In this document: one piece after another, positions 1,604 through 63,511 of the stretch
Layout: each line of letters starts with the position of its first letter
Numbering within the stretch: the first letter of the stretch is position 1
Origin: Clostridiales bacterium
GTDB taxonomy: Bacteria; Bacillota; Clostridia; Lachnospirales; Lachnospiraceae
Assembly: GCA_020859995.1 (NCBI GenBank)
Contig: JAJBVE010000120.1
Location: 2,121-66,120, forward strand
Direction: 5' to 3'
Length of the DNA: 64,000 nt
Notes under the pieces: generated by a model
Databases searched by the model: none
Told to the model about the DNA's origin: nothing
Seen by the model: only the letters and a program-made list of their open reading frames with translations
Translations under genes and position numbers: made by a program

Positions 1604-2365
1604 ATGAAGGGGAAGAAGGAGAAGGAACTTCGACATCTGAGACGTGCGGATTTGCTCCGAATGCTGATTGACCAAAGCAGGGAGAACGAACAGATGCGCA
1701 GCCGCGTGGCTGAGCTTGAGCAACAGATACAAACGGCCAGTACCGGAACGCCCGCAATGGAATCCGCGGATCAGCCTGCAAATGCCAGGCACGGAGATTC
1801 CACATCGCAGAGCGCCACGGCACTGGAAAAAGAACTTCATCGGATAACCTACAAAAAAAACTTTCACAGGACTCTGCGAAGTACAATAAGTACATTGATT
1901 ACGGTGGCCGCCATCTCGGTGCTGGTGGCGACCTTATTTTTACCGGTTTTACAGATTTACGGATCTTCCATGACACCGACCCTGACAGACGGAAACATCG
2001 TGATTTCCCTGAAAGTCTCCGACTTTGAACAGGGCGACATATTAGCATTTTATTACAACAACAAAGTTCTCGTAAAACGTGTCATAGCCACCGGAGGCCA
2101 ATGGGTGAGCGTCGACGAGGACGGAAACGTATATGTGGACGGCAAGCAACTCGACGAGCCCTACGTATCCGAGCTGGCATATGGAGAGTGCGACATCGAA
2201 TTTCCCTACCAGGTGCCGGAAGGCAAGCTGTTCGTGATGGGCGACCACCGCTCCGTATCCGTAGACAGCCGGAGTTCCACGGTAGGCTGCGTGGCCTCCG
2301 AACAGATCGTCGGAAAACTCGTATTCCGTATCTGGCCGCTTGGCTCATTTGGAAAAATCGAGTAG
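1604..2365 (+). CDS. Type I signal peptidase (S26) with long N-terminal cytoplasmic extension
   Basis: S26 boxes are present: GSSMTPTL (catalytic Ser), VLVKRVIATGG (catalytic Lys), MGDHRSVSVDSRSS. One TM segment (TLITVAAISVLVATLFLPVL) follows about 95 aa of charged coiled-coil-like sequence. RBS aggtgg sits 9 nt before the ATG at 1604. The ORF track begins at GTG 1592. Confidence 0.85.
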   Translation: MKGKKEKELRHLRRADLLRMLIDQSRENEQMRSRVAELEQQIQTASTGTPAMESADQPANARHGDSTSQSATALEKELHRITYKKNFHRTLRSTISTLITVAAISVLVATLFLPVLQIYGSSMTPTLTDGNIVISLKVSDFEQGDILAFYYNNKVLVKRVIATGGQWVSVDEDGNVYVDGKQLDEPYVSELAYGECDIEFPYQVPEGKLFVMGDHRSVSVDSRSSTVGCVASEQIVGKLVFRIWPLGSFGKIE

Positions 2366-2475
2366 CGGAAAAACGAAGCAGCAGAAGAATCAAAGCAGTG
2401 GGAACCAGAATGAGTCCGCGGCTGGTGAAGAGACGAAGCAGCGGAAACCAGAAAAAGAAAGGAGGTGCCCGGAAA

Positions 2476-13654: not shown

Positions 13655-13900
13655 CAGTTACGCTGACAGAAAGAAATCTCCCATTGAAGACGTATTGGAT
13701 TTGTGATATTCTGAGACTGTATAACCCGGGATGATTCGTGTGTTCCGGGCACAGAGGGCTTGATCGGGAATGAAGCAGATCGGGAGGTGTTAGGCAGATG
13801 GGGTATTATCTAAATAGTACGCAGGCGTTTTCTTTGTACAAAAGTGAGGCGGAGAGCCCATACTTTGTTGACAAGACAATGCTTCTGAGAGAATTGATTC
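13655..13900 (+). repeat. Copy A of duplicated leader plus 5' end of AAA-ATPase-like gene
   Basis: Aligns with 21739-21984. The leader is about three-quarters identical by eye, with conserved blocks cattgaag, tggatttgtgatattct, aacccgggatgattcgt and gggaggt. The last 55 nt are identical. Confidence 0.8.
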
Positions 13901-15546
13901 CGCTGGTGGAGCAGGGGAATAAGCATATTTGCATTACCCGCCCCCGCCGCTTTGGCAAGTCGGTTATGGCTGCCATGATCGGCGCATTTTTCGGTAAGGG
14001 AACTGACAGCAGCGGGATTTTTGACTCGCTGAAAATTGCGCAGGCTCCCCAGGACGAAGGAGTTTTTTTATCGGACCAACCGGATGAAACTTTTGATTAC
14101 AGGCAGTACATGAACCGATATGACGTGATTTACATTAATTTCATCGAGGCTGCGAATGAAAGCACCAGTTATGAGGAATTTATCACGACGACGAAGGAGA
14201 TTCTGCAGGAGGATCTCCGAGAAGCCTTTCCGGATGTGAAGTTTCGCAAGAAAGGCACTGCGATTCAGGATTTGCAGAAAATTTATGAGTATACACAGAA
14301 CAAATTTATTCTTGTGTTTGACGAGTGGGACTGCATTTTTCATAAGACCTATACGACCGATGAGGACAGAAGAAATTTTATCAACTGGCTGGCGGCGCTG
14401 ACAAAGGATAAAGGGTACATTGCACTTAGTTATATGACAGGGGTGCTGCCCATTGCAAAATATTCGAGTGGTTCCACGATCAATAACTTTAACGAGTACA
14501 CGATGGCGACTGACGACTTGTTCAGTGAATATTTTGGATTTACGGAGGCGGAAGTGGATGACCTCTATTCAAGGTATGCGGCGAGGACTGCTGATCGAAA
14601 TGTTTCGCGCGAGGATCTGAAATATTGGTATGACGGATATCATACGCCTTCTTCAGAACGAATGTATAATCCACGATCTGTAGTAGAGGCGCTGACACGC
14701 AACCGGATCAGGAGCTATTGGAGCGCGACTGGTTCTTATGCAGAGATTGCTGCTTATATCGTGAACGACAGGGCGGATGTGAAGAAGGATGTGGCACTTA
14801 TGGTGGCTGGGGAAGCTGTTCCTGCGAAGGTAGAGGAGTATGCAGCCACAGCGATGCGTTTGAGTACGCGGAATGAAATCCTGTCTGCGATGGTGGTTTA
14901 TGGCTTTTTGAATTACGAGAATGGGAAGGTGCACATCCCTAATAAAGAGTTGCTGGATGAATTTTCCAAAACAATCCGTGAAAGAGAAGATTTGGGTTAT
15001 ATGAACCGCCTTGCCATGGAATCTGATCGTATGCTGCAGGCAACATTGAGAGGCGATACGAAGACCATGGAGGAGATTTTGGCTTTTGCTCACGATTTGT
15101 CCTCAGTCTCATCTGAGACTGAGGACGCAGGCCGCGCCCATCGACCGAAGGTCGATTATAATTGCGCGGCTCTCCCGTATACGGAAACTCCTCTTTTGGA
15201 TTACAATGACGAGACCGAGCTTACCGCGATTGTGAACCTCGTCTATCTGGCAGCGAGGGACAGCTATTATGTAGAAAGAGAAAACAAAGCCGGGACTGGC
15301 TACACGGATTTCATTTTTTATCCGGAAAGAGCAGGAGATGACGGCCTGATCCTTGAATTGAAGGTGGACGATACCCCGGAGGCGGCGATCCGACAGATTA
15401 AGGATCGAAAGTATCTTTTGAAGTTTCAGGGCAGGATGGCTGAGAAAAAGCGCCATACTGGCCGGGTTCTGCTGGTTGGGATTGGATATAGCAGAAAGAA
15501 GAAGGATCACCACTGCAAAGTGGAAATTGTAAAGCAGGTAAATTAA
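13798..15546 (+). CDS. AAA-ATPase-like (PF09820-type) plus PD-(D/E)XK (PDDEXK_9-type) fusion protein
   Basis: N-terminus PYFVDKTMLLRELI...ITRPRRFGKSV is the hallmark of predicted AAA-ATPase_like proteins. C-terminus GTGYTDFIFYP...GLILELKVDD...AIRQIKDRKY fits a D...E-x-K nuclease core. Confidence 0.75.
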   Translation: MGYYLNSTQAFSLYKSEAESPYFVDKTMLLRELIPLVEQGNKHICITRPRRFGKSVMAAMIGAFFGKGTDSSGIFDSLKIAQAPQDEGVFLSDQPDETFDYRQYMNRYDVIYINFIEAANESTSYEEFITTTKEILQEDLREAFPDVKFRKKGTAIQDLQKIYEYTQNKFILVFDEWDCIFHKTYTTDEDRRNFINWLAALTKDKGYIALSYMTGVLPIAKYSSGSTINNFNEYTMATDDLFSEYFGFTEAEVDDLYSRYAARTADRNVSREDLKYWYDGYHTPSSERMYNPRSVVEALTRNRIRSYWSATGSYAEIAAYIVNDRADVKKDVALMVAGEAVPAKVEEYAATAMRLSTRNEILSAMVVYGFLNYENGKVHIPNKELLDEFSKTIREREDLGYMNRLAMESDRMLQATLRGDTKTMEEILAFAHDLSSVSSETEDAGRAHRPKVDYNCAALPYTETPLLDYNDETELTAIVNLVYLAARDSYYVERENKAGTGYTDFIFYPERAGDDGLILELKVDDTPEAAIRQIKDRKYLLKFQGRMAEKKRHTGRVLLVGIGYSRKKKDHHCKVEIVKQVN

Positions 15547-25953: not shown

Positions 25954-26195
25954 TCGTCGCACTGACTCATTATAAAACACCAAAGGAAATCCGTCAATCA
26001 TTTCTTTGCTGTAATTTTCACCGTATTTTTGCCGTTTAGCTGAAAAACTGACCGTTTAACTGGAAAGCATTGATTTTTAAAAGGGATATGTTAAAATCAA
26101 AAAAACTTATAGATCATATAATACATCAACCATTGAGGATGGTAATGAAGAAGGGGAATGTATTAAAGAAGGGTAGTAAAGAAAGGAGAGTATCT

Positions 26196-29100
26196 ATGAA
26201 AAAGAGGAACAGGATCAGCCGTATTCTGGCTATGGTATTGACGATGTCCATGATTTTCCAGCAGGTGGGCATTACTACCTATGCGGATGATGGTTCGAAC
26301 AGCGGCATCGCCGCGATTTCCGCGGAGCAGACAGAAAGTGCTGCGTCACTGGATACTGCGGCGAATGAAACTTCCGCTTCTGTGACAGAAACGCAGGCCG
26401 AAGCTGGCACAGCGGAGACGCAGGAAGAGGCAAGTGCCGCGGCGGAGACGCAGGAAGAAACAAGCGCGCCGGCGGAGACACAGGAAGAGACGAGTGCCCC
26501 GGCGGAGACACAGGAAGAGACAAGCGCACCGGCGGAGACACAGGAAGAGACGAGTGCCCCGGCGGAGGCACAGGAAGAGACAAGTGCACCGGCGGAGACG
26601 CAGGACGAAACGAACGCTGCTGCTGAAAGCGGCGACGATGCAGCTGCTTCTGGCGAGAGCGCGGCAGGCGATGCAGCCGGATTGACTGATGGCACCGCGG
26701 CTGAACCTGAGACGGCAGACACTATAGCAGACGGCGAGGGAGAGACGACTCCGGATGCTGCTGACGTATCTGGCGAAACGGCCGAGAACGGCGAAGCTGC
26801 AGGGGATGGCGAGTTGCGGCAGGCTTCTGATGAAAACGCGGCTGAAGCTGAGACCCTGGCGGATTCCGAATCAGATGCGGATATGACGCAGGCGTCAGAC
26901 GGAACGGCAGCGGACGGGACAGAAGCAGAAACCGATGCTGAGTCAGAAGTGGGAGCAGAGACGGAATCGGAGACCGAAACCGAGACTGAGACTGAAACCG
27001 AGACGGAAACGGAAACCGAGACCGAAACTGAGACGGAAACAGAGACGGAAGAAGAGCGCGTGCTCACGACCTACACTTATGAGGATTCTAAGATTTCCGT
27101 GACGGCGAAACTCCAGTACGCGGAGGCGGTGCCGGACAATGCTGAGCTTCGGGTGACGGCAGTGACTGCGTCGACAAGCGGCTACAATTATGACGCTTAT
27201 ATGCAGGCGCTGAATGACAACGCTGACAGCATCCTTACAGAGTCAGCCAGACTGTCCGGATCAAACGAGGATCTCTTTACCTCTGAGAATACGCTGCTCT
27301 ACGATGTGGCGTTCATCGTTCCGAAGACGGATGAAAACGGCGATGAGATCCCGGGCGAGGAAGTGGAATATCAGCCGGAGACAGGCTCTGTAAAGATTAC
27401 GATTACATTTAAGAAAAATCAGCTTTCCAATACGCTGGAAGCAGAATCCGCGAGCGATGTGACGGTGGTTCACCTCCCGCTGGATTCCGACATCAAGGAG
27501 TCGGTAGACACTACGGCGGAAGCGACGAATATTTCCTCTTCGAATGTTAATATTGAAGTAGTGGACGCGAGCGTGTCCCTGAAGGGCACAGACAAGGCGA
27601 CATTCAGCCTGGATGATCTGTCGCTCGTGGCAGTGACGCCGAGCGCGATCACAGAGCTTGGGGTTGGAAAAACCTATACCTATTCCGAGATCCTGGGCAA
27701 TGCGATTTACTATGGTATTGTGACAGGTACCTTCCATCAGACAGGCCACATCGATACAAACTTTGCGACCAAGCTGTTCACTGGCGGCAGCGGAAATGGG
27801 ATTACGGTCGGCAAGTACACCGGAACCAATGCCGGTACGGTGGTGATTGCGGATACAGACTCGACAGCAAATGCGATTATCGGTACGCAGTCCTCCAATA
27901 TGGTGACGCAGCTCTGGACGACACAGGACGCGCTTGATCACGCAATCGCTCTGGCGCTTTCCGCGACTGCGCTCCAGGCAGGGGGTGAGGTGATTTCTAC
28001 CTTTACCGTCGCGGAACTGAACGCTTACGTGCAGTCGATGCTGAATCATTGCGCATCTATTTCACTGACACTTGGAAATATATCGTCTTATACCTATACG
28101 GTAAGCGGAGGCAGATTGGATATAGATATTTCCGCTCTTGATGACGGTACTTACTATATCAATGGCGACAGTCTGGCAAGTGTTTCGGAAGGTCAGCTTT
28201 ACATTAAGAAAAAGGCCACTCAGACGATCGTATTCAATTTCTATGATTCAGATGTGACTCTGACACGTTTTAACATCGATAATGGTTCGGGCTCTGTACA
28301 GAGTAATACATTGATCTCACCTTCCAGCGGGGACGCGGATTTAGCCAAGTCGGTTGCGGAAACGATTATCTTCAATATGCCGAATGCGGATAAGGTAAGC
28401 CTTAGTGAGATTGTGGGTATTGTGCTTGCGCCGGAGGCGGCAGTAACGATAAAAGGTACTTCCGGCGGCTGGCTGGTTTCGGACAGCATCAAGGAGACGG
28501 GCGGCGAGTGGCACAACATCTGGACGGATATGCCGACTGTGGCAGAGATTCCGGCACCGGCGCAGCTGATAGCGTCTAAGACGGTAAACGGAGCGACTCC
28601 GGAGACTACCGACGACACCTTTAGCTTTGCGCTTTATACCTGGGATAACGGAACGGGCGCGTGGTCTCAGAGTCCGACACAGACCGTGACCAACAGTGGT
28701 TCGGTGGTATCGTTCCAGACGCTTTCTTATTCAGATAAGGGAGAATATTTTTATAAGATCGTCGAACAGGCCGGGACCGGAGAGTATGAATATGATAATA
28801 CCATTTATGTCGCGAAGGTGACGGTGGATTCTACCACCTCAACCAATTCTTCTGGTTCTGCTACGACTACTTATTTTGTATCTTCCGTCGAATATTACGA
28901 GTGGACCGGGGATGAAAGCAGCGGCGATACCCTGGATCCTACGGAACTGGCGACAGGCGGCACACCTTCTTCCCTGTTTACACCAGTGACGACCGCATCG
29001 TTTGACAACACGCGCAAGCAGGATGGGCAGCTGACGATCACCAAGGCGGTGGCGGACACCAGCGAGAATGGCAAGAAGGGATATACACTTGATAAGGAAT

Positions 29101-32100
29101 TTTCATTTGAGATAACCATTGGGACGATCAAGGGCGATTACAGTGCCGAGATCACGACCGTTACGACCAGGGCGGATGGTTCCACCAGCACGGCCACGGA
29201 CAGCACCCAGAAGGTGCATTTCGCACAGGGCGTTGCCTCGATTATTTTAAAAGCCGGTCAGACGATCACAATCAAAGGCCTTCCGGAAAATGAGACTTAC
29301 AGCGTGGTGGAGATCGCGGATGCGGATTATACAACGAAAGTCAGGGTAACATCCGGTATGACCACCGGGACAGATAAGGATTCTTACGCGGCGTCCGGTA
29401 CGATTACCAAAGATGGAGATACCGTTACCTACACGAACACCCGCAGCGTAGGCAGCCTTGTACTGAAAAAGACGACGACAGGCGCGGCCACACCGGCAGG
29501 AACGCTCTTTACGGTGTATGACAGCCAGAACAGAGAGATTGCGTCGGTTACGTATTCACAGTTTACCAACGGCACCTATACGATTGATAACCTGGCGCTC
29601 GGCAGCTATACCGTCAAAGAGACCGGAGCGGCGGTTACGGATTATACGCTCAATGTGACAGGCACCAGCACGGCAACCCTGCTGCAGAGCGGAGATACGG
29701 AGACCTACCAGATCACGAACACCTACACGAAGGATGAAGGCGGTCTGACGGTTATCAAGACACACGCGGCTGACTCGGACGCGACAACGCCGGACGATAC
29801 GGTATTCAAGGTTTATAAGATAGAGACCGTAAACGGCGCGGAGACAGAAGTTTATGTAGATCAGGTGACATACAGTGATGTCAAGACAATCGGATCTTAT
29901 ACGTTCACTGGTCTTGAGACTGGCACCTACCGGGTGTATGAGATTGGCGCCAATATTACCGGCTATACGCTGTCAGTTACGAATGGCAGTAATACCGCTT
30001 TGCCGTCCGGAACGACGGTCGACAGCGAGACAGGCGTTTATACGGACGCGTCTGTGACGAAGGAACAGTCAGCTACAGTGACTTTTGAAAATGATTATAA
30101 CCGCGAGACGGGCAGTCTGAAGCTGACGAAAGAGACTATTACCTATAAGCTGGTCGAAAAGACTGATGCCGCGACCGGCACAACCACCTGGGTTGCGGAA
30201 AAAGTTACGGATGAGAGTGAAATGCTTTCTACCCCGGCTACGACCGTATTCACGATCAAGAGTGCGGATGGCACTTATGAGACAGAGGTGACGTACAGCA
30301 GCTTTATCAATGGTTCCTATACACTGAACGATCTCCCGATCGGGACCTATACTGTGACGGAAAAAGGCGCGGAACTGAACGGCTATACACTGGATGTAAC
30401 TGCCGACGGGACAGCGACCGTCACATCCGGGAGCACTGCGGCAGAATACAAGATTACCAATACCTATACAGAGAAGCACGGGAGCACGCTGAAGGTTTGG
30501 AAGAATACGGTCAGCGGCACGACGCCGGATGATACGCTCTTTACGGTATATCAGATCGTAGAAGCGGAAGAAACCGCGGCAGACGGAACGGTTTCTACTG
30601 TGAAAAAAGAGGTTGAGATTGCCAGCAGATATTACTATCAGTTTAAGGAGCTGGGTTATTTCGAAATCACAAATCTCTCAAAGGGTACCTATATCGTAAA
30701 AGAGACGAACGCGGACGTGGATGGTTATACGCTGCTGGAAGTTTCTGATGCTGACGCAACGATAGACTATGATGAAGGCGATACCGCGGATGTGACCATC
30801 ACCAATGAGTATACCCGCGATACAGGCAGCCTGAAGCTGACGAAAGTGACGACCGGAAACGCGACGCCGGACAGCGCGACCTTTGTCGTGAGAGATTCTT
30901 CCGGAGCCGTAGTCGAAGAAATTCCGTACAGCGATTTTACAAACGGAACCTATACGATCAGCAATCTCCCGACCGGTACTTACACCGTGACAGAGAACTA
31001 TGGCACTGTGGCGGGCTTCACCTGGACTTACGTGGTGGACTATGGTGCAGAAACGGACGCGAATGGAACAGTGACAGCTCTTGCATCTGCTGCTGTGACT
31101 AATGGCGGCACCGCGGAAGTGACCATTACAAATACGTACACACCGGAGACGACAGCTGTCTATGTGACGAAGACCTGGGAGGATAACGCAAACCTCTGCG
31201 GCACCCGCCCGGAGAGCATTACGATAAATCTTTACGCAGACGGCGCGCTTAAGGAAAGCAGAACCGTGACGGCAGACGCGGCTGGCGGCTGGAGCTGCGA
31301 GTTTACGGAGCTACCGAAATACAGCTATGATGAAGCAACGAGTACGTCATCCGAGATTGTTTATACAGTGACAGAGGATGCGGTGAAGCTGTATGATCTG
31401 ACTGAAACGACTGGCAATGGGACATCAAATGTGACTCTGGTTAATACCCTTCAGACAGGCAGCCTGACTGTGACCAAGACGGTAGCTGGCAGCGTGGTTG
31501 ACACCGAGAAGGCATTTTCATTCACAGTGACCCTGAGCAATACGGCAGTCAGCGGCACCTTTGGCGGCATGACATTTGAAAATGGCGTGGCGACGTTTAC
31601 GCTGAAACACGGCGAAAGCAAGACGGCGACGGGTCTTCCGGCAGAAACTACCTACACGGTGACGGAGGAATCCTATACGGCGGATGGCTATGTAACTACT
31701 TCAAGCGGAACAACGGGCACCATTGCCGCGGAGGAAGAGCAGACCGCAGCGTTTACCAACACGATTACTTCTGTGACGATTAAGAAAGTGGATATCGTGA
31801 CAGAGGAGGAACTCCCGGGCGCGACCATTCAGATCCTGGACGAAGACGGAAATGTGGTGGAAGAATGGACCTCCACGACGGAAGCGCACGAAGTGACCGG
31901 CCTGGTACCGGGCGAAACCTATACACTCCGTGAGACCGTAGCTCCGGACGGCTATGACATTACGACAGATACTACATTCGTACTGAACGAGGATGGTACG
32001 ATCAATACAGAAAAGACCACTACGACGACCAGCGCGGACGGCGTGCTGCTGGTGGAGGATTCCATGAGTAAGAGCGAGGATGCCTCGATCTCCATCACGA

Positions 32101-33095
32101 AGGAACTGCTCTATGTGGGCGAGAGCGACCCGGTCGCGATCAACGCAGTGGACCAGACCTTCTACGTGGCACTCTATTATGATGAGGAATGCACACAGAT
32201 TGCTTCCGAAGTAAAGGCAATCCATTTCCAGAACGCATCCTCAGGGACAGCTACTTTTACCAACATTGAAGTTGGCAGAACCTATTACATTGGCGAGTGT
32301 GATGAAGACGGGACGGCCCAGCTTGCAGGATTCTATGACGGCAACGGCAACCTCTGCTTCGCGAACTTTGAGACCGACGGTAATGTAGTAGTCGTGGAAG
32401 AAGAAGACGGCAGTGAGACCATCTACTTCGCGAACGAATTTTACACCATGCCGACAGGCTATTCCTGGGAAGGCGAGCTGACGATCACGAAGAAGGTCCT
32501 TGACCCGGATGGTGAGGCGCTTGAAACGAACTCCACATTCTATGCAGGAATCTTTACGGACGCGGCATTCACGAATCTGGCTACGACGGACGATGGAGTG
32601 TCTGAGAGCATCGTGGCGATCACTCTGGACGGTACTTCTGAAGCAAGCACTGTTGTGAAGGTAGGCGCTGCGGTTGGCACGACCATCACACTCTATGTGA
32701 CAGAGACTGACGAAAACGGCGTTCCGGTGAAATCCGGTTCCGACGACTTCTTCTATGAGGTGGCTGTCACCGGTTCAGAAGTGGTATTAACTGAGAGCAG
32801 CTACAATGCGGAAGTGACCATTACGAACCAGGAGATCCTCGAGGAAGAAGAAGAGACGGAAGAGGAGACTGAGACGGAAACAGAGACCGAAACGGAAACA
32901 GAGACCGAAACAGAATCCGAGACCGAGACCGAAACGGAAAAAGCAACGGAAACAGAGACAGAAACGGAGACAGAGGCGAACGCGGTACAGACAGGCGACG
33001 AAACCCCGCTTTTGCCATATGCGATGGCAATGCTTCTGGCAGCGATGGTGCTGCTGGCCGGACTCGTGGAAAGAAAAAGACGGGCAGACCGATAA
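26196..33095 (+). CDS. Giant cell-wall-anchored adhesin (2,299 aa) with VQTGD-type sorting signal
   Basis: ATG at 26196 follows RBS gaaaggagag. Signal peptide. AETQEETSAP x7 and ETET tracts. A region resembling a choice-of-anchor-A / beta-helix domain (IIFNMPNADKVSL..GIVLAPEAAVTIKGTSGGWLV..GGEWHN). Many SpaA/Cna-B-like modules (YTVKETGA, YTVTEKGA, YTLRETVAPDGY, TKTWEDNANLCGTRPESITINLYADG). C-terminal NAVQTGDETPLLPYAMAMLLAAMVLLAGLVERKRRADR. Confidence 0.85.
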   Translation: MKKRNRISRILAMVLTMSMIFQQVGITTYADDGSNSGIAAISAEQTESAASLDTAANETSASVTETQAEAGTAETQEEASAAAETQEETSAPAETQEETSAPAETQEETSAPAETQEETSAPAEAQEETSAPAETQDETNAAAESGDDAAASGESAAGDAAGLTDGTAAEPETADTIADGEGETTPDAADVSGETAENGEAAGDGELRQASDENAAEAETLADSESDADMTQASDGTAADGTEAETDAESEVGAETESETETETETETETETETETETETETETEEERVLTTYTYEDSKISVTAKLQYAEAVPDNAELRVTAVTASTSGYNYDAYMQALNDNADSILTESARLSGSNEDLFTSENTLLYDVAFIVPKTDENGDEIPGEEVEYQPETGSVKITITFKKNQLSNTLEAESASDVTVVHLPLDSDIKESVDTTAEATNISSSNVNIEVVDASVSLKGTDKATFSLDDLSLVAVTPSAITELGVGKTYTYSEILGNAIYYGIVTGTFHQTGHIDTNFATKLFTGGSGNGITVGKYTGTNAGTVVIADTDSTANAIIGTQSSNMVTQLWTTQDALDHAIALALSATALQAGGEVISTFTVAELNAYVQSMLNHCASISLTLGNISSYTYTVSGGRLDIDISALDDGTYYINGDSLASVSEGQLYIKKKATQTIVFNFYDSDVTLTRFNIDNGSGSVQSNTLISPSSGDADLAKSVAETIIFNMPNADKVSLSEIVGIVLAPEAAVTIKGTSGGWLVSDSIKETGGEWHNIWTDMPTVAEIPAPAQLIASKTVNGATPETTDDTFSFALYTWDNGTGAWSQSPTQTVTNSGSVVSFQTLSYSDKGEYFYKIVEQAGTGEYEYDNTIYVAKVTVDSTTSTNSSGSATTTYFVSSVEYYEWTGDESSGDTLDPTELATGGTPSSLFTPVTTASFDNTRKQDGQLTITKAVADTSENGKKGYTLDKEFSFEITIGTIKGDYSAEITTVTTRADGSTSTATDSTQKVHFAQGVASIILKAGQTITIKGLPENETYSVVEIADADYTTKVRVTSGMTTGTDKDSYAASGTITKDGDTVTYTNTRSVGSLVLKKTTTGAATPAGTLFTVYDSQNREIASVTYSQFTNGTYTIDNLALGSYTVKETGAAVTDYTLNVTGTSTATLLQSGDTETYQITNTYTKDEGGLTVIKTHAADSDATTPDDTVFKVYKIETVNGAETEVYVDQVTYSDVKTIGSYTFTGLETGTYRVYEIGANITGYTLSVTNGSNTALPSGTTVDSETGVYTDASVTKEQSATVTFENDYNRETGSLKLTKETITYKLVEKTDAATGTTTWVAEKVTDESEMLSTPATTVFTIKSADGTYETEVTYSSFINGSYTLNDLPIGTYTVTEKGAELNGYTLDVTADGTATVTSGSTAAEYKITNTYTEKHGSTLKVWKNTVSGTTPDDTLFTVYQIVEAEETAADGTVSTVKKEVEIASRYYYQFKELGYFEITNLSKGTYIVKETNADVDGYTLLEVSDADATIDYDEGDTADVTITNEYTRDTGSLKLTKVTTGNATPDSATFVVRDSSGAVVEEIPYSDFTNGTYTISNLPTGTYTVTENYGTVAGFTWTYVVDYGAETDANGTVTALASAAVTNGGTAEVTITNTYTPETTAVYVTKTWEDNANLCGTRPESITINLYADGALKESRTVTADAAGGWSCEFTELPKYSYDEATSTSSEIVYTVTEDAVKLYDLTETTGNGTSNVTLVNTLQTGSLTVTKTVAGSVVDTEKAFSFTVTLSNTAVSGTFGGMTFENGVATFTLKHGESKTATGLPAETTYTVTEESYTADGYVTTSSGTTGTIAAEEEQTAAFTNTITSVTIKKVDIVTEEELPGATIQILDEDGNVVEEWTSTTEAHEVTGLVPGETYTLRETVAPDGYDITTDTTFVLNEDGTINTEKTTTTTSADGVLLVEDSMSKSEDASISITKELLYVGESDPVAINAVDQTFYVALYYDEECTQIASEVKAIHFQNASSGTATFTNIEVGRTYYIGECDEDGTAQLAGFYDGNGNLCFANFETDGNVVVVEEEDGSETIYFANEFYTMPTGYSWEGELTITKKVLDPDGEALETNSTFYAGIFTDAAFTNLATTDDGVSESIVAITLDGTSEASTVVKVGAAVGTTITLYVTETDENGVPVKSGSDDFFYEVAVTGSEVVLTESSYNAEVTITNQEILEEEEETEEETETETETETETETETESETETETEKATETETETETEANAVQTGDETPLLPYAMAMLLAAMVLLAGLVERKRRADR
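26412..26621 (+). repeat. 30-bp x 7 in-frame tandem repeat (AETQEE[AT]SAP)
   Basis: Seven head-to-tail units gcggagacRcaggaagaRacRagYgcNccg with only a few substitutions each. Confidence 0.9.
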
Positions 33096-42574: not shown

Positions 42575-43413
42575 ATGGGAGTTTATTTAAATCCGGGAAA
42601 TCGTGAATTTTATCAGGCTGTGCGGTCGAAAATCTATGTAGACAAGACGATGCTGATTGCACACACAAACAGTGTGCTGGATACGGAACAGAAATATATC
42701 AGTGTCAGCCGACCACGGAGATTTGGGAAATCAATAGCGGTCAATATGCTGGCAGCATATTATGGAAGAGGATGTGACTCGAGAGAATTGTTTTCCAATT
42801 TTAAAATAGCGAAGAGTCCGACCTTTGAGGATCATTTAAACAAATACAATGTAATTCGGATTAATATGCGAAATGCCCTGACTCGAGGGAAAACGGTGGA
42901 AGGGATGATTGCAATTCTGGAGAAAATGATTGCAATGGAGCTTAAAAAAGAGTGCCGGACTGTGGAGTTCTCGGGAATAGATTTCATGTCTTATCTGGAG
43001 GACGCGTTCACGCAGACCGGTATTCCATTTGTATTTATTATTGATGAGTGGGACTGCGTCTTCCGCGTTTTTCCGAGAGATACGAATGAGCAGACCCAAT
43101 ATCTGGATTATCTGCGGTTTTTGCTGAAAGACCAGTCCTACGTGGCGCTTGCTTATATGACTGGAATCCTTCCTATCAAAAATTTTCCATGAATGAAGAA
43201 GAAGTGGCATGCCGGACTCCGGCGCTGGTAATTGAGCTGAAATGGGATCATACCGTGAAGACCGCACTTGATCAGATCCGGGATCAGAACTATGTGGATT
43301 GCCTGAACCACTATCAGGGAGAAATTCTGCTGGTGGGCATCAGTTATAATAAGAAAACGCGAAAAGGCGGGAAAAAGCATTTTTGTAAGATTGAGAAGGT
43401 AGTTAAATGCTGA
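42575..43413 (+). pseudogene. AAA-ATPase-like/PDDEXK_9 gene with large internal deletion and frame change
   Basis: The N-terminal 205 codons (IYVDKTMLI...VSRPRRFGKSI...YVALAYMTGILPIK) stop at 43192. A C-terminal piece in another frame (43189-43413: LVIELKWDHTVKTALDQIRDQNY...LLVGISYNKK) matches the last ~70 aa of the 13798 protein. About 300 middle codons are missing. Confidence 0.7.
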
Positions 43414-53147: not shown

Positions 53148-53198
53148 AGAGATTGAGGATGCAGAAAATCCATTGGTAAAAAATGGGTAGTTCACTAA

Positions 53199-56100
53199 TC
53201 AGAATGATAGACAGTTCCGCATTTCCCTGCGGTATTTTTGTGCCGCAGAACTGTCGTTCTGATCCTCACAGATTCTGATCAGTTTGAGAAAGGCTTCGCG
53301 GACAATCCGTCTGGCATTTCTTTTTCCGATATGGGAGGTGAGCCACTGCATCATAAAAGGATCGGCCACGTTTTGATAGTGCCTGCGAGCCTGCTCCACG
53401 TCGTTTCTAGCCAGACAAACGTCTCCCAGCTTATACCAGATATAGCTTAAGTAACCCTGCAATTCGGGAAATTCGGCCGGTTCTCCCGCGGGGCTTACTG
53501 TTTTAGTGGACATGGAACCTAGCAGTCCGTTTATTCGTGATGCCGCTGTTTCGTACCATTCCTGTGCCTCTGTCCAGTCTTTTTTTCTGACGGCCAGATC
53601 GCCTTCCTTTTCAAGCTCTGCTGCGCTTTCCAATTCTTTTTGTTTTGCAGCTTCAATTTTTTCTCGCAGCGGAACTGCCTTTTTCTTAAGCTCACGTTCG
53701 CTCACGGAGTCCTGCATTTTCCGGTACACTTCGGCTAAAATATCATATAAGTGCATCAGATCACACCATGTGCGCAGCGTTTGTAATTCTTCCACGTCCA
53801 ATTCGGTAAGCCGTGCGGTTTCCTCATAATACTCCCGCGCGCTTTTTAAGTCACCGGCTTTCAGACTGATGCTGCCAAGCTTATTTCCGATCAGAATCAG
53901 CAGATGACGGTCGCGGGACGTTTCGGTCTCGTCATAGATGGATTTTCGCAGACGGATGCTTTTTTTATAGCAGGACTGTGCCTGATCAATGTTATTAGCT
54001 GTCAGGTAAGCTTCGCCCATGCTCTCGTAATCGCGCATTAGCCTGCGGAACTCGCCCAGCGTGAGCGTTTTTCTTGCCAGCATTTCATCAACATCAATGG
54101 CTTTTTTATAATAACTGATCAATGTGCCAAACGCTTCCGGTATGATTTCATAGTTGCCCTTTTCCGGATTATATCTTTCGATGGTATGCCGGTGGTAAGC
54201 GGCCATTTCCGCATATCCTTCCGCCAGATCACGCCAGGCTTCCACGGTGTGTGTCTCAGCGGCGATGGTTTCGCGGACTTCCAGCGCTTTTAGAAGCAGT
54301 CTGCGGCTTTCGGCCAGTTCTTCGTCCTGATGACTCCAGCCGAGCAGTCCCCCAATACGTCCATAACAATTTGCCATCCGGATTCGGTCTTCGATTGATT
54401 CGGTCTGCGTGCAGCATTCTTCGCTCAGAGCGAGCGCCTTTCTGAAATATGCTTCTGCTTTGTCAGGACGGAAGTATTCTCGTTGGATATTCCCCAGATC
54501 AAAATACAGATCAGCAATATTGCGTTTCATGTAGATGGTCGGCTCGGAATCCAAAATGCTTTCCGCCAGTTCCAGCGCTTTCAGATAATACTCTTCGCAG
54601 ACAGTTACATGTTTTTCCTTCTTTGCCGTGAAACGTCCCATATTCCACTGATATTGAAATTGATAATGCAGCAGCTCCTCTTCCTCCATCCAGCAGGAAT
54701 AACTTCTGATAAGGTCATCTATTATGATGTAGTCCCCCTGCGCCACATCAAAATCCTCTTCTTCAGCCTCACATGCCGCGAGACATTCCATTGTATAGAT
54801 CAGATTGATCCATGGCTTTTCCTCTTTATTACGATGTTTTGCGATGCATTTTTTACCGAACTCAGTGTCAAGACCGATGCAGGCTGCATATTGCTCCCGC
54901 GCTTTCGTGAAGTTTCCCTCCTTTCGATACACATTTCCCAGCTTTGCGGAGATAGTAGAAATCCGGCGCTTCAGTGCATCTGTTTCTGAAAAATCAGATA
55001 AAAGCAGACGCCCCGTTTCCTGCCCGGCCTGGAAGACTTCAATAGCTTTCTCTACATTGCGCAGTTCGTAATGAAAGTCTCCAAGATCTTTTATAGCCTC
55101 TAACAATGCAAGGGCATCCTCACAGGTTTTGCCGGTTTTATAATTATCTGACAGGACTTGTGTCAGCTCCTGCTGTATGGCGGTTGCCATGTGGTAATCT
55201 CTGGAAACGACTTCTCCCATGCGGTACATTTGCACCAGCTTTTGTAGGGCCTCCGGAAGCCCTTTTTGCGCGGCCATCTGAATCAGCTCCAGTGCTTTTT
55301 GGGGGTTGACTTCCAGATCAATGCCGTTCAGATAGGCCAGACCGATTAAAAACAGGTGCCGCGGATCACTGCTGACACCGGTGGCGATCATTCGAATATC
55401 TGCAAGAAGGGAACCTGCAAGCGCAGCTTCGTCAAATGCATTTACAGAATCGGGTATATCGGGATACTTTTGCTTCAGCGCCTCTGGATCAGTTGGACGG
55501 ATCTCGACCGGCAAAACCTTTTTTTCAAGGTTTTTTGCCGCGGTATATTCGATTGTCATGACATAATTGCCGTCTTCCAGCAGATTTGGAGTTACAGCCA
55601 GTGCAAAGAGACTGCTTTTTTCCATCGCGCTGATAATGGCCTGATTAAAATCGCGTCCGGGTACAAGAAACTCATCGTACCATATGGCAATGTCGCGGCA
55701 GAATTCATTTTTGTGAATTAGTTTCATTAATTGCTGGGCGTATTTCCGATCCTTTTTTCGGTAGCTTAAAAATACGTATGCGTCAAAAGCGGCGCGAATC
55801 TGATCCGCCAGCTCATCTCCCACAAGTACGGAAGAAAGAAACACGGACATTTTTTCATCGTAACTGATTGCGGTAAGGTCCTGGCTGTTTCTGTCCAGAA
55901 ACTGAAGGTTGCCGCAGCGAGCATTAAATTCTGCCTCAAGACCGCTTTCCATCATGATGGGGAGGATGGGGATGTGGCGTGTCTGTGCAAAACCAAATTC
56001 CAGATCCCGTGCCCGGTTTTCCCGGTACAGAAATCTGGACGTGATCGGAATGACGAACAGCTGCATTTCCTCCAGATCGGCAAGTAATTCATTTTGAATA

Positions 56101-56273
56101 ACCTCTTCATGGGGATCCGAGTCATACCAGATCACACAGTTCTGCTTTTTCAGAATTTCGTCAGACAGGTCTGTGAAATATAAATCAAAATCCTGCGGAT
56201 GGCAGGAAAAATAGACGCGCGACTTGCCCTGCGGAGAGCTGTTTCCCCTCGTCTTATAACACAGCTTTGCCAT
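53199..56273 (-). CDS. Tandem TIR-like domains plus Sel1 plus TPR repeat protein (1,024 aa)
   Basis: ATG at 56273 follows RBS gaaaggaga. Module 1 RVYFSCHPQD..VIWYD..LFVIPITSRF. Module 2 YVFLSYRKKDRKYAQQL..IAIWYDEFLVPGRDF..SSLFALAVTPNLLE (classic bacterial TIR pattern). Sel1-like LIGLAYLNGIDLEVNPQKALELIQMAAQKGLPEA. About 650 aa of TPR-like repeats. No signal peptide or TM. Confidence 0.75.
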   Translation of the reverse strand: MAKLCYKTRGNSSPQGKSRVYFSCHPQDFDLYFTDLSDEILKKQNCVIWYDSDPHEEVIQNELLADLEEMQLFVIPITSRFLYRENRARDLEFGFAQTRHIPILPIMMESGLEAEFNARCGNLQFLDRNSQDLTAISYDEKMSVFLSSVLVGDELADQIRAAFDAYVFLSYRKKDRKYAQQLMKLIHKNEFCRDIAIWYDEFLVPGRDFNQAIISAMEKSSLFALAVTPNLLEDGNYVMTIEYTAAKNLEKKVLPVEIRPTDPEALKQKYPDIPDSVNAFDEAALAGSLLADIRMIATGVSSDPRHLFLIGLAYLNGIDLEVNPQKALELIQMAAQKGLPEALQKLVQMYRMGEVVSRDYHMATAIQQELTQVLSDNYKTGKTCEDALALLEAIKDLGDFHYELRNVEKAIEVFQAGQETGRLLLSDFSETDALKRRISTISAKLGNVYRKEGNFTKAREQYAACIGLDTEFGKKCIAKHRNKEEKPWINLIYTMECLAACEAEEEDFDVAQGDYIIIDDLIRSYSCWMEEEELLHYQFQYQWNMGRFTAKKEKHVTVCEEYYLKALELAESILDSEPTIYMKRNIADLYFDLGNIQREYFRPDKAEAYFRKALALSEECCTQTESIEDRIRMANCYGRIGGLLGWSHQDEELAESRRLLLKALEVRETIAAETHTVEAWRDLAEGYAEMAAYHRHTIERYNPEKGNYEIIPEAFGTLISYYKKAIDVDEMLARKTLTLGEFRRLMRDYESMGEAYLTANNIDQAQSCYKKSIRLRKSIYDETETSRDRHLLILIGNKLGSISLKAGDLKSAREYYEETARLTELDVEELQTLRTWCDLMHLYDILAEVYRKMQDSVSERELKKKAVPLREKIEAAKQKELESAAELEKEGDLAVRKKDWTEAQEWYETAASRINGLLGSMSTKTVSPAGEPAEFPELQGYLSYIWYKLGDVCLARNDVEQARRHYQNVADPFMMQWLTSHIGKRNARRIVREAFLKLIRICEDQNDSSAAQKYRREMRNCLSF

Positions 56274-56551
56274 AAATGGTGTTCTCCTTTCTGGGGCTGC
56301 CTTTCTGGCAGACAGGCACTTTTTCGTTTTGTTTGAAATTTTAACATAGAAAACAGCCGGTGACAATCCAGAGTCGCTTCTGAATTTTCTGCGCAGCCTG
56401 CTTTTCTCCGGCCTGCACCGTTGATTTTATGCACGTTGGTGGTGTACAGGTTTGACGACGACATGTAACAAATTTTACCTTTTTCCATTGCTTTGCCGAA
56501 AAGATTGTGCTACCTTTGAATAAGAACAAAAATTTATTCGGGAGCGGTTTT

Positions 56552-58223: not shown

Positions 58224-59567
58224 ATGGCAGAATATGTGTTTGACCGGGAAGCATACGAAAAACGAATGGCGTGGTATCAGGACGCGCGGTTCGGCATGTT
58301 TATCCACTGGGGACTTTATGCGATCCCGGCGCGCGGGGAGTGGGTGCGCAGTGTGGAGCAGATGCCGGAAGAAACATACATGAACTATTTTGAGGAGTTT
58401 GATCCGGTTGATTATGACCCGCGCAAATGGGCGAAGGCCGCGAAAAGGGCCGGTATGAAATATATGGTGCTGACCGCGAAGCACCACGACGGATTTTGCC
58501 TCTTTGACAGTCAGTATACAGATTTTAAGTCCACCAATACAAAGTGCGGACGCGACCTGGTGGCGGAGTATGTGGAGGCGGTCCGCGCGGAAGGGCTGAA
58601 GGTCGGCCTGTATTTTTCGCTTCTGGACTGGCATCATGAGGATTATCCGCATTATGGAGACTCCATTCATCCGATGCGGAACAATCCGGCTTATGGGAAT
58701 GAACACCGGGATTTTGACCGTTACCTGGATTATATGCACAACCAGGTTCGCGAACTTTGTACGAACTACGGAAAGCTGGATATCCTGTGGTTTGATTTTT
58801 CCTACGATGAACTGCGGGGCGAGGCGTGGAGAGCGACCGAGCTGGTGCGAATGGTGCGCTCCCTGCAGCCGGATGTGATCATTGATAATCGCCTGGAAGT
58901 GAGCGGGGAGGGCTTTGGTTCTCTGGCGGATGGCCATCCGACGCCATACCACGGGGATTTTGTAAGCCCGGAGCAGATCATTCCGCCTCAGGGGATGCTG
59001 GATGTAAATGGCAATGACCTCATCTGGGAGGCCTGCTTTACGATGAACAACAACTGGGGCTATCACGCGACGGATCATTGCTACAAGCCTTCGTCCATGC
59101 TGATCCGCAAGCTGGTGGAATGCGTCTCCAAGGGCGGAAACATGCTGCTGAATGTGGGTCCGGACGCGCGCGGCAATTTCCCGGAGGAGGCCATGGAGCG
59201 TCTGGAGGCAATTGGAGCGTGGATGGAGAAAAACAGCCGCAGTATTTATGGCTGCGGCAAGGCGAAAAACACGGACGGCTCTGTGATGGAAAAACCGGAT
59301 TATGGGCGCGTGACCGCCGGGGACCACCGTCTGTTCTACCATGTGTTTGAAAACACGGTGGGTGCGGTCCCGCTCATCGGTGTGAAACACGAAGAGGTGA
59401 AAGCAATCCGTTATCTGGCTACCGGCGCGGAGATTCCGATTCTCACGGATTGGGTATACGCGAACTATCCGGATATCGTGTTTGCCTCTCTGGGCGGAGA
59501 TCCGGTGCTGCCGGATCCGGTCGATACGGTGATCGAGGTGGTGTTGAAGGAAGCTTCACCGATCTGA
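58224..59567 (+). CDS. Alpha-L-fucosidase (GH29)
   Basis: YQDARFGMFIHWGLYAIPA and YMVLTAKHHDGFCLFDS. The ATG at 58224 is preferred because the tracked ORF start (58086) lies inside the repeat element. Confidence 0.85.
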   Translation: MAEYVFDREAYEKRMAWYQDARFGMFIHWGLYAIPARGEWVRSVEQMPEETYMNYFEEFDPVDYDPRKWAKAAKRAGMKYMVLTAKHHDGFCLFDSQYTDFKSTNTKCGRDLVAEYVEAVRAEGLKVGLYFSLLDWHHEDYPHYGDSIHPMRNNPAYGNEHRDFDRYLDYMHNQVRELCTNYGKLDILWFDFSYDELRGEAWRATELVRMVRSLQPDVIIDNRLEVSGEGFGSLADGHPTPYHGDFVSPEQIIPPQGMLDVNGNDLIWEACFTMNNNWGYHATDHCYKPSSMLIRKLVECVSKGGNMLLNVGPDARGNFPEEAMERLEAIGAWMEKNSRSIYGCGKAKNTDGSVMEKPDYGRVTAGDHRLFYHVFENTVGAVPLIGVKHEEVKAIRYLATGAEIPILTDWVYANYPDIVFASLGGDPVLPDPVDTVIEVVLKEASPI

Positions 59568-59650
59568 GATTGCGGTTATGTCGGCATTCTGGCGCAATCA
59601 ATCACGCGGCGGCTATGTTTATAGAAATAAGTGTACAAGGAGGCGATTTT

Positions 59651-60196
59651 ATGGCATTGCCAAAAGAAGAACTTTTTTCATCGGAGGATTACTGGAATCT
59701 GCCAGATGGAAAACGTGCGGAGCTGATTGACGGACAGCTTTATGATATGGCTCCGCCGAGCCGGGTACATCAGGAACTTGTCATGGAGCTTTCGGCTGTC
59801 ATTCGGAATTATATTCGCGGGCGGGAAGGTTCCTGCAAAATTTATCCTTCTCCGTTTGCGGTTGATTTAAATGCGGATGATGAAACGTATGTAGAGCCGG
59901 ATATCAGTGTGATTTGTGACAGAGATAAGCTGACGGATAAAGGCTGCAAGGGAGCCCCGGATTTTATTATTGAGGTCGTCTCTCCTGGCAGCAGAAAAAT
60001 GGATTATTCTACAAAGAATGCGCTGTACTTTGACGCTGGAGTGCGGGAGTATTGGATTGTTGATCCGGCAAAAAGAAGGACGACTGTTTATCGATATGAA
60101 GAGGATGCAGCGCCCATGATTATTCCGTTTGATATCCCAATCACGGTAGGGATTTATGGGGATCTTCAGATTGTAATAGAGGAATTATTGCAGTAA
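59651..60196 (+). CDS. Uma2 family (DUF820) PD-(D/E)XK endonuclease
   Basis: AELIDGQLYDMAPPSRVHQ, EPDISVI, PDFIIEVVSPGSRKMDYSTKNALYFDAGVREYWIVDP. RBS aaggagg. Confidence 0.8.
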   Translation: MALPKEELFSSEDYWNLPDGKRAELIDGQLYDMAPPSRVHQELVMELSAVIRNYIRGREGSCKIYPSPFAVDLNADDETYVEPDISVICDRDKLTDKGCKGAPDFIIEVVSPGSRKMDYSTKNALYFDAGVREYWIVDPAKRRTTVYRYEEDAAPMIIPFDIPITVGIYGDLQIVIEELLQ

Positions 60197-61888: not shown

Positions 61889-63511
61889 TTGAAGGAATTT
61901 AACACGACCGGCATCTGTTTTCCGGACAGGCACTATATGGTCGATACATCCGAACGTATCCACAGGATTATCGAAGAATTGATCAAGAAGAATAAGTATT
62001 TTACAATCAACAGAGCCAGGCAGTATGGAAAGACTACAACCATTTCCAGATTAAGAGCTGCGCTGCGGGATGAGTATTATGTGGCCAAAATATCATTTGA
62101 AGGGCTTGGTGAAACGGCGAAATCCGAATATGGTTTTGTGTGGAAATTTATCCAGCTTGTAGGGTTTCAGCTTTCAGCCGCCGGCTTCCCGCAAAAAGTA
62201 CTGGACGAATGGGAGGCACCTTCTTTTAAGGAATCGTCTTTTATGAATGATTCCATTGCCTTTTTAGATATTCGTATTACCAGACTGTGTTCCCAAAGCG
62301 ACCGGGAAATTATTCTTTTTATTGACGAGGTGGATGGCATCTCGAATAATGAACTTTTCCTGAGCTTTCTTGGAATGCTGAGAAGAAAATACCTCAGCGC
62401 CTCTGAGGGAGATGACTGCACGTTTAAGAGCGTTGTCCTGGCTGGTGTTTATGATATTAAAAATATTCAGGCCAAAATACGCCCAAATGAAGAACATCAA
62501 TATAACAGCCCCTGGAACATTACTGCGGATTTTGATATAGATATGTCTTTTCATACTGACGAAATCGAAACCATGCTAAAGGAATACCGCAAGGATCATG
62601 GATTTGATTTTGATACGGCCTGGTTTGCTGGTCAGATTTTCGCCTATACATCCGGGTACCCGTTTCTGGTGTCACGGCTCTGCTGGCTGCTGGACACTAA
62701 AGTCTGCATGGATCCGGATTTCGGCTCAAAACAGGCTGCCTGGTCGCAGAATGGATTCCAGAGAGCTGTGAAGCTCCTTTTGAAAGAACAGAATACTCTT
62801 TTCGATGATCTGAACAAAAAGCTGGATTCAGATGAAAAATTAAAGAATCTGGTTTACCGGATCGTTGTATGCCGGGAAAATATTCCTTTTAACCAGAATG
62901 ACAATCTGATAAAATTCGGGACAATGTTTGGATGGTTCAAGGATCTGAATGGAAAAACCGTGATCTCAAACCGCATTTTTGAGACCATTATCTGCGATAA
63001 GCTCCTTCAGGAGCGGACCACCACCCGCATTTATAAAGAGGGAGTCCTGGAAACAATTCAGCTGAAGACATCCACTGAGCTGAATATGGATAAAATAATT
63101 GAACGATTTGCCGCTCATTATAAAAGTATGTACGCGGACCGTACCTCCGACATCGGCTCTGCCGATATCGGACAAGAACTTGAAAATGAAGCGCGAATGA
63201 TTTTTCTTACTTTTTTGAAGCCGATCATCAACGGCAGCGGCAATTATTACATGGAACCGGAAGCCTTTGACAAGACCCGGACGGACATTGTCGTTGATTA
63301 TGGGGGACATCAGTACGTGATTGAGGCGAAGATCTGGCATGGTGAAAGTTACGAACAGTCCGGCAGGGAGCAGCTCTGCGGCTACCTGAAACGCTACAAT
63401 CTGCCCGTCGGCTGGCTGATCAGTTTTTGTTTTAATAAAAATAAAGATACGCTTGTTGGAACACGCGAAATACGGATTGATGGTAAAATCATCCGGGAGA
63501 CGGTGCTGTAG
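61889..63511 (+). CDS. AAA-type ATPase with C-terminal PD-(D/E)XK nuclease fold (distant paralog of the 13798 gene)
   Basis: TTG start follows RBS aaggggga. HYMVDTSERI...FTINRARQYGKTTT (P-loop), ILFIDEVD (Walker B-like), C-terminal RTDIVVDYGGHQYVIEAKIW (D...E-x-K). Confidence 0.7.
   Translation: MKEFNTTGICFPDRHYMVDTSERIHRIIEELIKKNKYFTINRARQYGKTTTISRLRAALRDEYYVAKISFEGLGETAKSEYGFVWKFIQLVGFQLSAAGFPQKVLDEWEAPSFKESSFMNDSIAFLDIRITRLCSQSDREIILFIDEVDGISNNELFLSFLGMLRRKYLSASEGDDCTFKSVVLAGVYDIKNIQAKIRPNEEHQYNSPWNITADFDIDMSFHTDEIETMLKEYRKDHGFDFDTAWFAGQIFAYTSGYPFLVSRLCWLLDTKVCMDPDFGSKQAAWSQNGFQRAVKLLLKEQNTLFDDLNKKLDSDEKLKNLVYRIVVCRENIPFNQNDNLIKFGTMFGWFKDLNGKTVISNRIFETIICDKLLQERTTTRIYKEGVLETIQLKTSTELNMDKIIERFAAHYKSMYADRTSDIGSADIGQELENEARMIFLTFLKPIINGSGNYYMEPEAFDKTRTDIVVDYGGHQYVIEAKIWHGESYEQSGREQLCGYLKRYNLPVGWLISFCFNKNKDTLVGTREIRIDGKIIRETVL

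Follow-up and report, generated by a model that had tools for sequence, protein, structure and literature searches.

A 64,000-nt stretch of the Clostridiales bacterium contig JAJBVE010000120.1 (the window, to which all coordinates of the gene refer) carries on its minus strand a gene for a large protein that combines two TIR-like modules, a Sel1-like segment and an array of tetratricopeptide repeats (TPRs). The open reading frame (ORF) at 53199-56366 comprises 1,055 codons when read from a TTG start, and an ATG at 56273 gives a product of 1,024 amino acids (aa). This ATG is taken as the start because it is backed by an AAGGAG box 10 nt upstream and by homologues that all begin with M..L.YKTRG, and the antisense 1,024-aa frame named in the original prediction is therefore present as described. 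An identical protein (P0001; retrieved homologues and loci carry labels of this kind) is already public under the name 'TIR domain-containing protein [Clostridiales bacterium]'. The gene converges with rsmI and diverges from the ThrE/ThrE_2 pair on its other side. Its GC content is 0.475, compared with 0.50-0.575 in the flanking genes on both sides, and its GC content at third codon positions (GC3) is 0.508, compared with 0.60-0.70, in line with the geometry and AT-richness that had been noted from the letters. With its own ribosome-binding site and a promoter-like site, the gene looks monocistronic; the count of promoter-like sites in the region is not above shuffle expectation. The features of the gene are collected in Table 1.

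Table 1. Features of the tandem-TIR/Sel1/TPR gene in the window, and positions of two neighbouring proteins at other loci of the family.
Feature	Position	Strand	Details
Complete coding sequence, tandem-TIR/Sel1/TPR protein	53199..56273	-	1,024 aa plus stop codon 53199-53201
Module 1, degenerate TIR-like flavodoxin-fold domain	55824..56273	-	aa 1-150
E92 codon, module 1 counterpart of E242	55998..56000	-	from module-module alignment
Module 2, canonical TIR_2 domain	55389..55781	-	aa 165-295
E242 codon, candidate catalytic Glu of module 2	55548..55550	-	invariant, 120/120
Sel1-like repeats, linker from TIR pair to TPR array	55134..55376	-	aa ~300-380
TPR solenoid	53202..55133	-	aa 381-1024; about 30 helices; kinesin-light-chain/LGN-like
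Shine-Dalgarno AAGGAG	56284..56289	-	10 nt 5' of ATG
Promoter-like TTGTCA-17-TAAAAT with TG extension	56338..56366	-	10/12, consensus match only; ~65 nt upstream
Convergent intergenic gap, rsmI stop to TIR gene stop	53148..53198	.	51 bp; end of conserved holB-rsmI synteny block
~725-aa neighbour	L073:5789-7969 (+); L075:5795-7969; L072:6717-8969; L071:11415-13604; L070:11589-13580
~590-aa RyR-domain membrane protein	L063:9996-11744; L020:6170-7963; L024:8774-10250

The full-length AlphaFold2 model (mean predicted local distance difference test score (pLDDT) 85, predicted template modelling score 0.71) begins with two beta-alpha domains in a row, at aa 1-150 and aa 165-295, after which a helical solenoid runs without interruption. 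A Sel1 repeat at aa 309-338 lies below the Pfam cut-off for a single sequence (22.7 versus 30.7 bits), and the segment matches solved Sel1 repeat proteins in the PDB with an E-value of 2e-8 as a single sequence and 8e-32 as a family profile. Pfam TPR_2/12/8/1 matches cover about aa 390 to 970, where the model is all-helical with a pLDDT mostly above 85, so that the predicted order of a Sel1-like repeat and a TPR array is borne out. A Foldseek search with the full-length model returned generic TPR solenoids only (Ctr9, Ski3, LGN and OGT) and gave no functional lead; the solenoid is presumed to be a variable sensor. As anticipated, neither an NTPase family of Pfam nor a Walker A motif was found in the 1,024-aa protein. 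A hydrophobic N-terminus and transmembrane segments are likewise absent across its length (maximum KD19 1.28), and the protein is cytoplasmic.

Module 2 carries the clearest domain assignment. It passes the Pfam TIR_2 model (PF13676) at aa 167-273 with 55.1 bits within the whole protein and 46.1 bits alone, compared with a cut-off of 28 (E-values of 1e-12 to 1e-14). Conservation was counted in the best 120 of at least 2,806 homologues obtained by a word-indexed search, all of which have the same N-terminus, made up of module 1 and module 2. The segments FLSYRKKD (168-175), AIWYDE (196-201), P205-G206 and T228-P229 are invariant in all 120 homologues, as is an NY...EY motif. The best PDB matches to the module 2 profile are the NADases AbTir and BtTir (PDB 7UWG, 7UXU, 8G83 and 7UXR; E 4.5e-4 to 6.5e-3). 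Common to these enzymes and module 2 are the betaB/BB-loop sequence WYDEF-L-x-G and a Glu-bearing alphaC helix followed by an (I/V)LP betaD strand. However, AbTir and BtTir pair their TIR domain with a coiled coil or a short N-terminal region, whereas the window protein pairs it with TPRs.

The two modules had been treated as equivalent in the original prediction, each with a Glu at roughly the catalytic position. Both residues, E92 and E242, exist and pair with each other in BLASTP and hhalign alignments of module against module, and each is the sixth residue of its own predicted alphaC helix (aa 237-248 in module 2) in the AlphaFold2 model. Conservation separates them: E242 is found in 120 of the 120 homologues, whereas the position of E92 is Glu in 85 (71%), Asp in 17 and hydrophobic or other in 18. 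The equivalence of the modules was thus mistaken, as module 1 is degenerate and its Glu variable. We read E242 as the candidate equivalent of the catalytic Glu of TIR NADases.

Module 1 is a strongly diverged TIR-like domain. A Pfam search with this part alone (aa 1-160) gave no match at E <= 10, so that the gathering threshold of TIR_2 (PF13676) was not reached, and the module 1 family profile produced only chance matches to PDB sequences. Without a Pfam match, its identity rests on fold and profile-profile evidence. The AlphaFold2 model of the module has a pLDDT of 88, and nearly all of its top Foldseek matches in the PDB are TIR domains (RPS4, RRS1, BtpA, SARM1, PdTIR and AbTir), with E-values of 5e-5 to 1e-3 and TM values of 0.5-0.66. 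In addition, module 1 matches module 2 in BLASTP (E 4e-5) and in a profile-profile comparison by hhalign from betaB to betaD (96.5% probability, E 8.6e-10). Of the two TIR-like modules that had been claimed, module 2 is therefore a TIR by Pfam, and module 1 is TIR-like by fold and profile. Its own conserved motifs are KPRVYFxCHPxD, QNCAIWYD, MQLFVxPVT, NRAxDxEFxFA and HIPVLPLM. Most simply, module 1 originated as an ancient internal duplicate.

Far from being the singular oddity that it had seemed, the gene belongs to a very large family. When module 1 by itself served as the query of an exhaustive phmmer search, representatives of 2,051 clusters at 50% identity were obtained, 858 with E <= 1e-30, and the family thus comprises at least 2,051 such clusters. 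Across them module 1 is almost confined to the N-terminus of the tandem architecture; among the 150 phmmer matches listed, nearly every protein is 650-1,400 aa long and has its module 1 domain at the N-terminus. At least 360 family loci were found in species-representative genomes, mainly of Lachnospiraceae, Oscillospiraceae, Acutalibacteraceae and other uncultured Clostridia of the gut and rumen, with a few in Anaerolineae, Erysipelotrichaceae and one Muribaculaceae bin. Members are publicly named only 'TIR domain-containing protein' or 'tetratricopeptide repeat protein'. Compared with the window protein, they are about 47-62% identical in module 1, 50-63% in module 2 and 31-39% across the entire sequence. 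One protein, P0121 (1,903 aa), has module 1 at residues 938-1095 and appears, from four matched stretches, to be two complete family proteins joined head to tail.

Groups of two or three neighbouring family genes, most of them tandem copies, occur in about 12 of 79 loci, and the TPR array is the most divergent part among such paralogues. Among three copies at one locus (L023), the N-terminal 300 aa are 88-94% identical and the TPR regions 45-59%. In a second locus (L036) the N-termini are 68% identical compared with 23% for the TPRs, and in a third (L012) the N-termini are 76% identical and the TPRs give no detectable alignment. A conserved enzymatic head with a fast-diverging repeat tail, in multiple copies at variable loci, is a pattern typical of immune sensors and receptor repertoires. 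For the window gene and its 86% identical orthologue, the ratio of non-synonymous to synonymous substitution rates (dN/dS) is 0.14 overall and 0.08 in module 2. The overall value indicates that the gene is functional and kept by selection, and it rules out a pseudogene or decaying gene.

The location of the gene is accessory. The orthologue (P0002), the only close relative, comes from the metagenome-assembled genome of another member of the Lachnospiraceae and is flanked by an Asp/Glu racemase gene and by PDDEXK_9 and polysaccharide genes, which have nothing in common with the context in the window. In a synteny sample of 80 metagenomic loci fetched via rsmI (65-82% identity), the block holB-PSP1-methyltransferase-rsmI is conserved in nearly all contigs that are long enough. 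In none of these 80 relatives does a family member or ThrE lie within 7 kb downstream of rsmI, which places the TIR-TPR gene of the window at the edge of the synteny block. Presence of the gene near rsmI, which the original prediction had proposed to compare among related genomes, thus varies, and a core syntenic gene is ruled out by the differing locus of the orthologue and by the absence from the 80 relatives. A further family member, of 834 aa, lies directly downstream of a prophage excisionase and integrase in a viral contig (L163:6081-10505; IMG/VR uncultivated virus genome 3300021256_004087), with an endolysin gene upstream and DnaD/DnaC/ParA/ParB-like genes after it; this member is either cargo at the prophage edge or part of the host flank. 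The other locus of the orthologue, the absence at 80 rsmI loci, the low GC3 and this prophage-linked member suggest that the gene is mobile.

No recurrent partner gene emerged when 794 ORFs of 79 family loci were clustered, the largest cluster outside the family being generic ABC ATPases. Among 136 immediate neighbours at these loci, 166 Pfam families are represented, and by Pfam and PADLOC none is common to more than 3-5 neighbours. Within the window, no effector gene was found within about 10 kb of the TIR-TPR gene, and no secretion genes adjoin it. The predicted lack of an NTPase module and of a ThsA-like or other partner thus holds for the protein and across the 79 loci.

Two kinds of neighbour recur at a low count. 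An unannotated protein of ~725 aa directly adjoins the TIR-TPR gene in five of the 79 loci, in three distant lineages (Lachnospiraceae, Anaerolineae and Oscillospiraceae). An HD-like motif (HYSHS...LFHDIGYPFE) and a RyR-like C-terminus can be recognised in this protein, and searches of Pfam, PADLOC and PDB sequences gave no match; it could be a subfamily-specific partner. In addition, a membrane protein of ~590 aa with a weak C-terminal RyR domain (Pfam E 1.4e-4) adjoins family members in three loci.

The closest known kind of system is the single-protein TIR+TPR defence of Escherichia coli, TIR-II, in which a single polypeptide carrying TIR and TPR domains confers protection against phages (PMC11350192, Nat Commun 2024). 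Its defence, by growth arrest or cell death, needs the active-site residue of the TIR domain (PMC11350192). Among the TIR systems surveyed there, TIR-II is reported to be the most widespread; only about 30% of instances have an ATPase domain, and many function with no partner (PMC11350192). The window protein resembles TIR-II in having an N-terminal TIR domain and C-terminal TPRs in one polypeptide and no conserved neighbour, a likeness of architecture only. Unlike TIR-II, it carries a further TIR-like domain, conserved but degenerate, ahead of the canonical one, and its TPRs are preceded by a Sel1 segment; its family is from gut Clostridia, whereas TIR-II is from Enterobacteria, and the two are likened by domain content. 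Because a TIR+TPR protein without a STAND ATPase has already been demonstrated to act in defence, the window gene is not a new category of defence, contrary to the view that its architecture matched no characterised type. The new element is the conserved tandem of pseudo-TIR and TIR, together with the Sel1 linker, in a very large family.

Other systems combine some of the same parts. TPRs take part in TIR-linked immunity, and in BcTir/Tpr an inactive TIR, with Lys replacing the Glu, regulates a separate catalytic protein (bioRxiv 10.1101/2023.05.26.542521; 10.64898/2025.12.03.692087). The inactive TIR of BcTir is conceptually like the pseudo-TIR module 1 beside module 2. Thoeris systems likewise have a TIR domain with NAD+-derived chemistry, but they are multi-gene, a ThsB-type TIR protein being encoded beside ThsA (SIR2/SLOG, Macro/TM) or another effector that responds to its signal, whereas the window has both TIR-like domains and the TPRs in a single gene with no linked effector. 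In Thoeris type VII the TPR protein has a non-TIR, glycosidase-type enzymatic domain at its N-terminus and is described as the effector or receiver, in contrast to the window protein, whose TPRs are fused to TIR_2. Membership of Thoeris was rejected on the partial nature of the ThsB1 match, the lack of an effector within about 10 kb in the window and the lack of one recurring in the 79 family loci; membership of the TPR-containing type VII (BcTir/BcTpr) was rejected because a single gene is present and its TPRs are fused to a TIR_2 domain. Avs and STAND proteins are similar in placing an effector at the N-terminus and a repeat sensor at the C-terminus, with sensor repeats that diversify among paralogues. 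The window protein is not an Avs or STAND NLR-like protein, as it has no P-loop, NACHT or NB-ARC match and its TIR pair runs straight into the Sel1/TPR helices in the AlphaFold2 model.

An already solved structure may also be related. PDB 9M0N/9UMD is an 824-aa 'Tetratricopeptide repeat protein' with 10 chains, and its residues 29-71 (IIYDEFTFEEGER...LFVLFIS) align weakly (E 0.19) to betaB-betaC of module 2. From this alignment it appears to be a solved TIR-TPR protein, probably enterobacterial; the nearest database relative of the fragment is a 65-aa fragment of a Klebsiella TIR protein. Judged from the matched segment alone, its TIR-like segment lies near the very N-terminus and leaves little room for a preceding domain like module 1. 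The structure is absent from the top 60 sequence matches and the top 50 fold matches of the full-length window protein, and a search for a publication on it found none.

Taken with these comparisons, the data lead us to propose, at a confidence evenly balanced between acceptance and doubt, that the gene is a stand-alone, horizontally mobile, single-protein TIR+TPR immune receptor, acting as an NADase sensor-effector in abortive infection. The data show the anatomy of the protein and its evolutionary pattern; for its chemistry, trigger and phenotype, we infer from established TIR biology and from the TIR-II precedent. The variable C-terminal Sel1/TPR solenoid would bind an invader-derived ligand, most likely a phage protein, and binding would relieve autoinhibition, drive self-association, or both. 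The canonical TIR, module 2, would then form an active NAD+-cleaving site around Glu242. NAD+ would be consumed, possibly with release of ADP-ribose (ADPR) or cyclic-ADPR isomers, and the infected cell would be arrested by abortive infection. Module 1, as a diverged and probably non-catalytic TIR duplicate, would be a built-in partner or regulator of module 2, and it might supply or mask the TIR-TIR surface that other TIR NADases obtain from a second subunit.

Several observations weigh against this proposal. PADLOC (2023), which the original prediction had named as a check, gave only a weak, partial match of the 1,024-aa protein to ThsB1 (E 6e-7, 100 of 319 profile positions), and a literature search found nothing relevant on this family or on bacterial tandem TIRs. 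Placing E242 at the catalytic position depends on the register: in HMMER alignments the Glu of WVHKE in Caenorhabditis elegans TIR-1 stands exactly opposite E242, while AbTir E208 stands opposite V238 and the BtTir Glu opposite T240, so that the registers differ by 0-4 residues. The alphaC-betaD segment of AbTir and BtTir is four residues longer than that of module 2, which accounts for the slippage in alphaC. Furthermore, the window protein departs from the family at two nearly invariant sites, which lie next to the BB loop and the Glu. At aa 207 (55653-55655) it has Arg, and the 86% orthologue His, where 115 of the 120 homologues have the Glu of a BB-loop PGE motif; at aa 244 (55542-55544), directly after the invariant Glu-Tyr, both proteins have Thr where 118 of the 120 have Pro. 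Defence-like genes (mad, CARF-PDDEXK, AbiEii, AriA and NACHT/nSTAND3) are a minority of the neighbours by bare counts, and the neighbourhoods consist mostly of ordinary genes. Tblastn of the N-terminal 300 aa gave no match in GenBank phages or PLSDB plasmids, and only two of 2.9 million viral contigs in IMG/VR carry the family N-terminus. On balance, what the original prediction had observed at this locus is confirmed, and its interpretation is partly supported.

The same TIR chemistry could serve a different end if TPR sensing led, in the manner of Thoeris ThsB, to a messenger of the cyclic-ADPR type that activates an effector encoded elsewhere or, in some lineages, adjoining the gene. AbTir and BtTir, the nearest relatives of module 2, are producers of cyclic-ADPR isomers, the best PADLOC match is ThsB1, and the ~725-aa HD/RyR-like neighbour in five of the 79 loci and the RyR-domain membrane protein in three more could be signal-responsive effectors. 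However, known signalling TIR systems encode sensor and effector in one operon, whereas about 90% of the loci, including those of the window gene and its 86% orthologue, have no candidate effector nearby, and in PADLOC, Pfam and the PDB no match was found that would connect the neighbouring proteins with nucleotide sensing. We regard such a signal generator as quite unlikely. A host-directed effector of the TcpB/BtpA/TcpC kind, acting on animal TLR signalling or on host NAD+ in the gut, would suit the origin of members in gut and rumen metagenomes and the presence of BtpA and PdTIR among the structural matches of module 1. Yet the export expected of Tcp-type proteins has no counterpart here, as there is no signal peptide, membrane segment or secretion-associated neighbour; the protein is large (1,024 aa) with TPRs of the intracellular type, and multi-copy hypervariable arrays suit an intracellular receptor better than a secreted effector. 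This alternative is most improbable.

It is also conceivable, if rather unlikely, that the role is not immune at all and that the protein is a TPR/Sel1 scaffold whose TIR pair serves as a protein-interaction or NAD+-sensing module in stress, sporulation or metabolic control, its expansion being unrelated to phages. In animals, TIR domains can also act purely as scaffolds. Such a role would fit the great abundance of the family in anaerobic gut Clostridia, the predominance of housekeeping or metabolic genes among its neighbours (rsmI and ThrE in the window) and the lack of a consistent defence-island context. The invariant Glu, WYDE and BB-loop motif argue instead for catalysis over scaffolding. 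In addition, housekeeping regulators do not typically show a patchy, non-syntenic spread or tandem arrays of several copies whose TPRs diverge fast, and the GC3 of the gene is low relative to its neighbours. Even with a non-immune role, the family would be a conspicuous unknown in gut Firmicutes.

Within the reading as an immune receptor, a bolder and rather doubtful version can be formulated. In this version, pseudo-TIR and TIR would form an intramolecular asymmetric pair, in which module 1 replaces the second subunit that completes or occludes the active site. Capture of a ligand by the TPRs would activate the enzyme with no need for a STAND ATPase or, perhaps, for filament formation, and the thousands of paralogues with hypervariable TPRs would constitute an NLR-like intracellular receptor repertoire peculiar to gut Clostridia. 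If the immune reading is true, a very large unnamed family of Clostridia that are dominant in human and animal guts would be a repertoire of one-gene phage sensors, often with several copies per genome, which would matter for the interplay of phages and hosts in the microbiome and for the NAD+-derived metabolites that gut bacteria make. The fusion of a degenerate TIR to an active one would be a natural experiment on the gating of TIR enzymes without oligomerisation machinery, and the fast-diverging TPR arrays could be mined for specificities of phage-protein recognition.

Further observations concern the surroundings of the gene. A terminator-like hairpin, CCGCATTTCCCTGCGG, followed by a T-run lies at 53217-53232 (+) of the window, inside the 3' end of the TIR gene and on the rsmI strand. 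It could be the rsmI terminator; hairpins of this kind are no more numerous in the region than in shuffles. Three low-GC ORFs of the window, at 13798-15546 (+), 42575-43192 (+) and 61889-63511 (+), resemble AAA-ATPase_like/PDDEXK_9 genes by appearance only. Two of them start with MG(Y/V)YLN...VDKT, and the third differs and has a weak PADLOC match (PDC-S54). Genes of this type also flank the 86% orthologue (L004) and members at three other loci (L013, L050 and L074, the last confirmed by Pfam), and it is possible that they form a selfish or mobile family whose presence is a mark of variable regions. A putative restriction endonuclease of the Uma2 family is encoded at 59450-60196 (+), about 3 kb from the TIR gene and past ThrE and a fucosidase, and matches the PADLOC candidate system PDC-S03 (E 5e-43). 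Finally, the window holds two giant ORFs, one of 2,875 aa with low GC (0.45) at 2101-10728 (+) and one of 2,341 aa at 26070-33095 (+).

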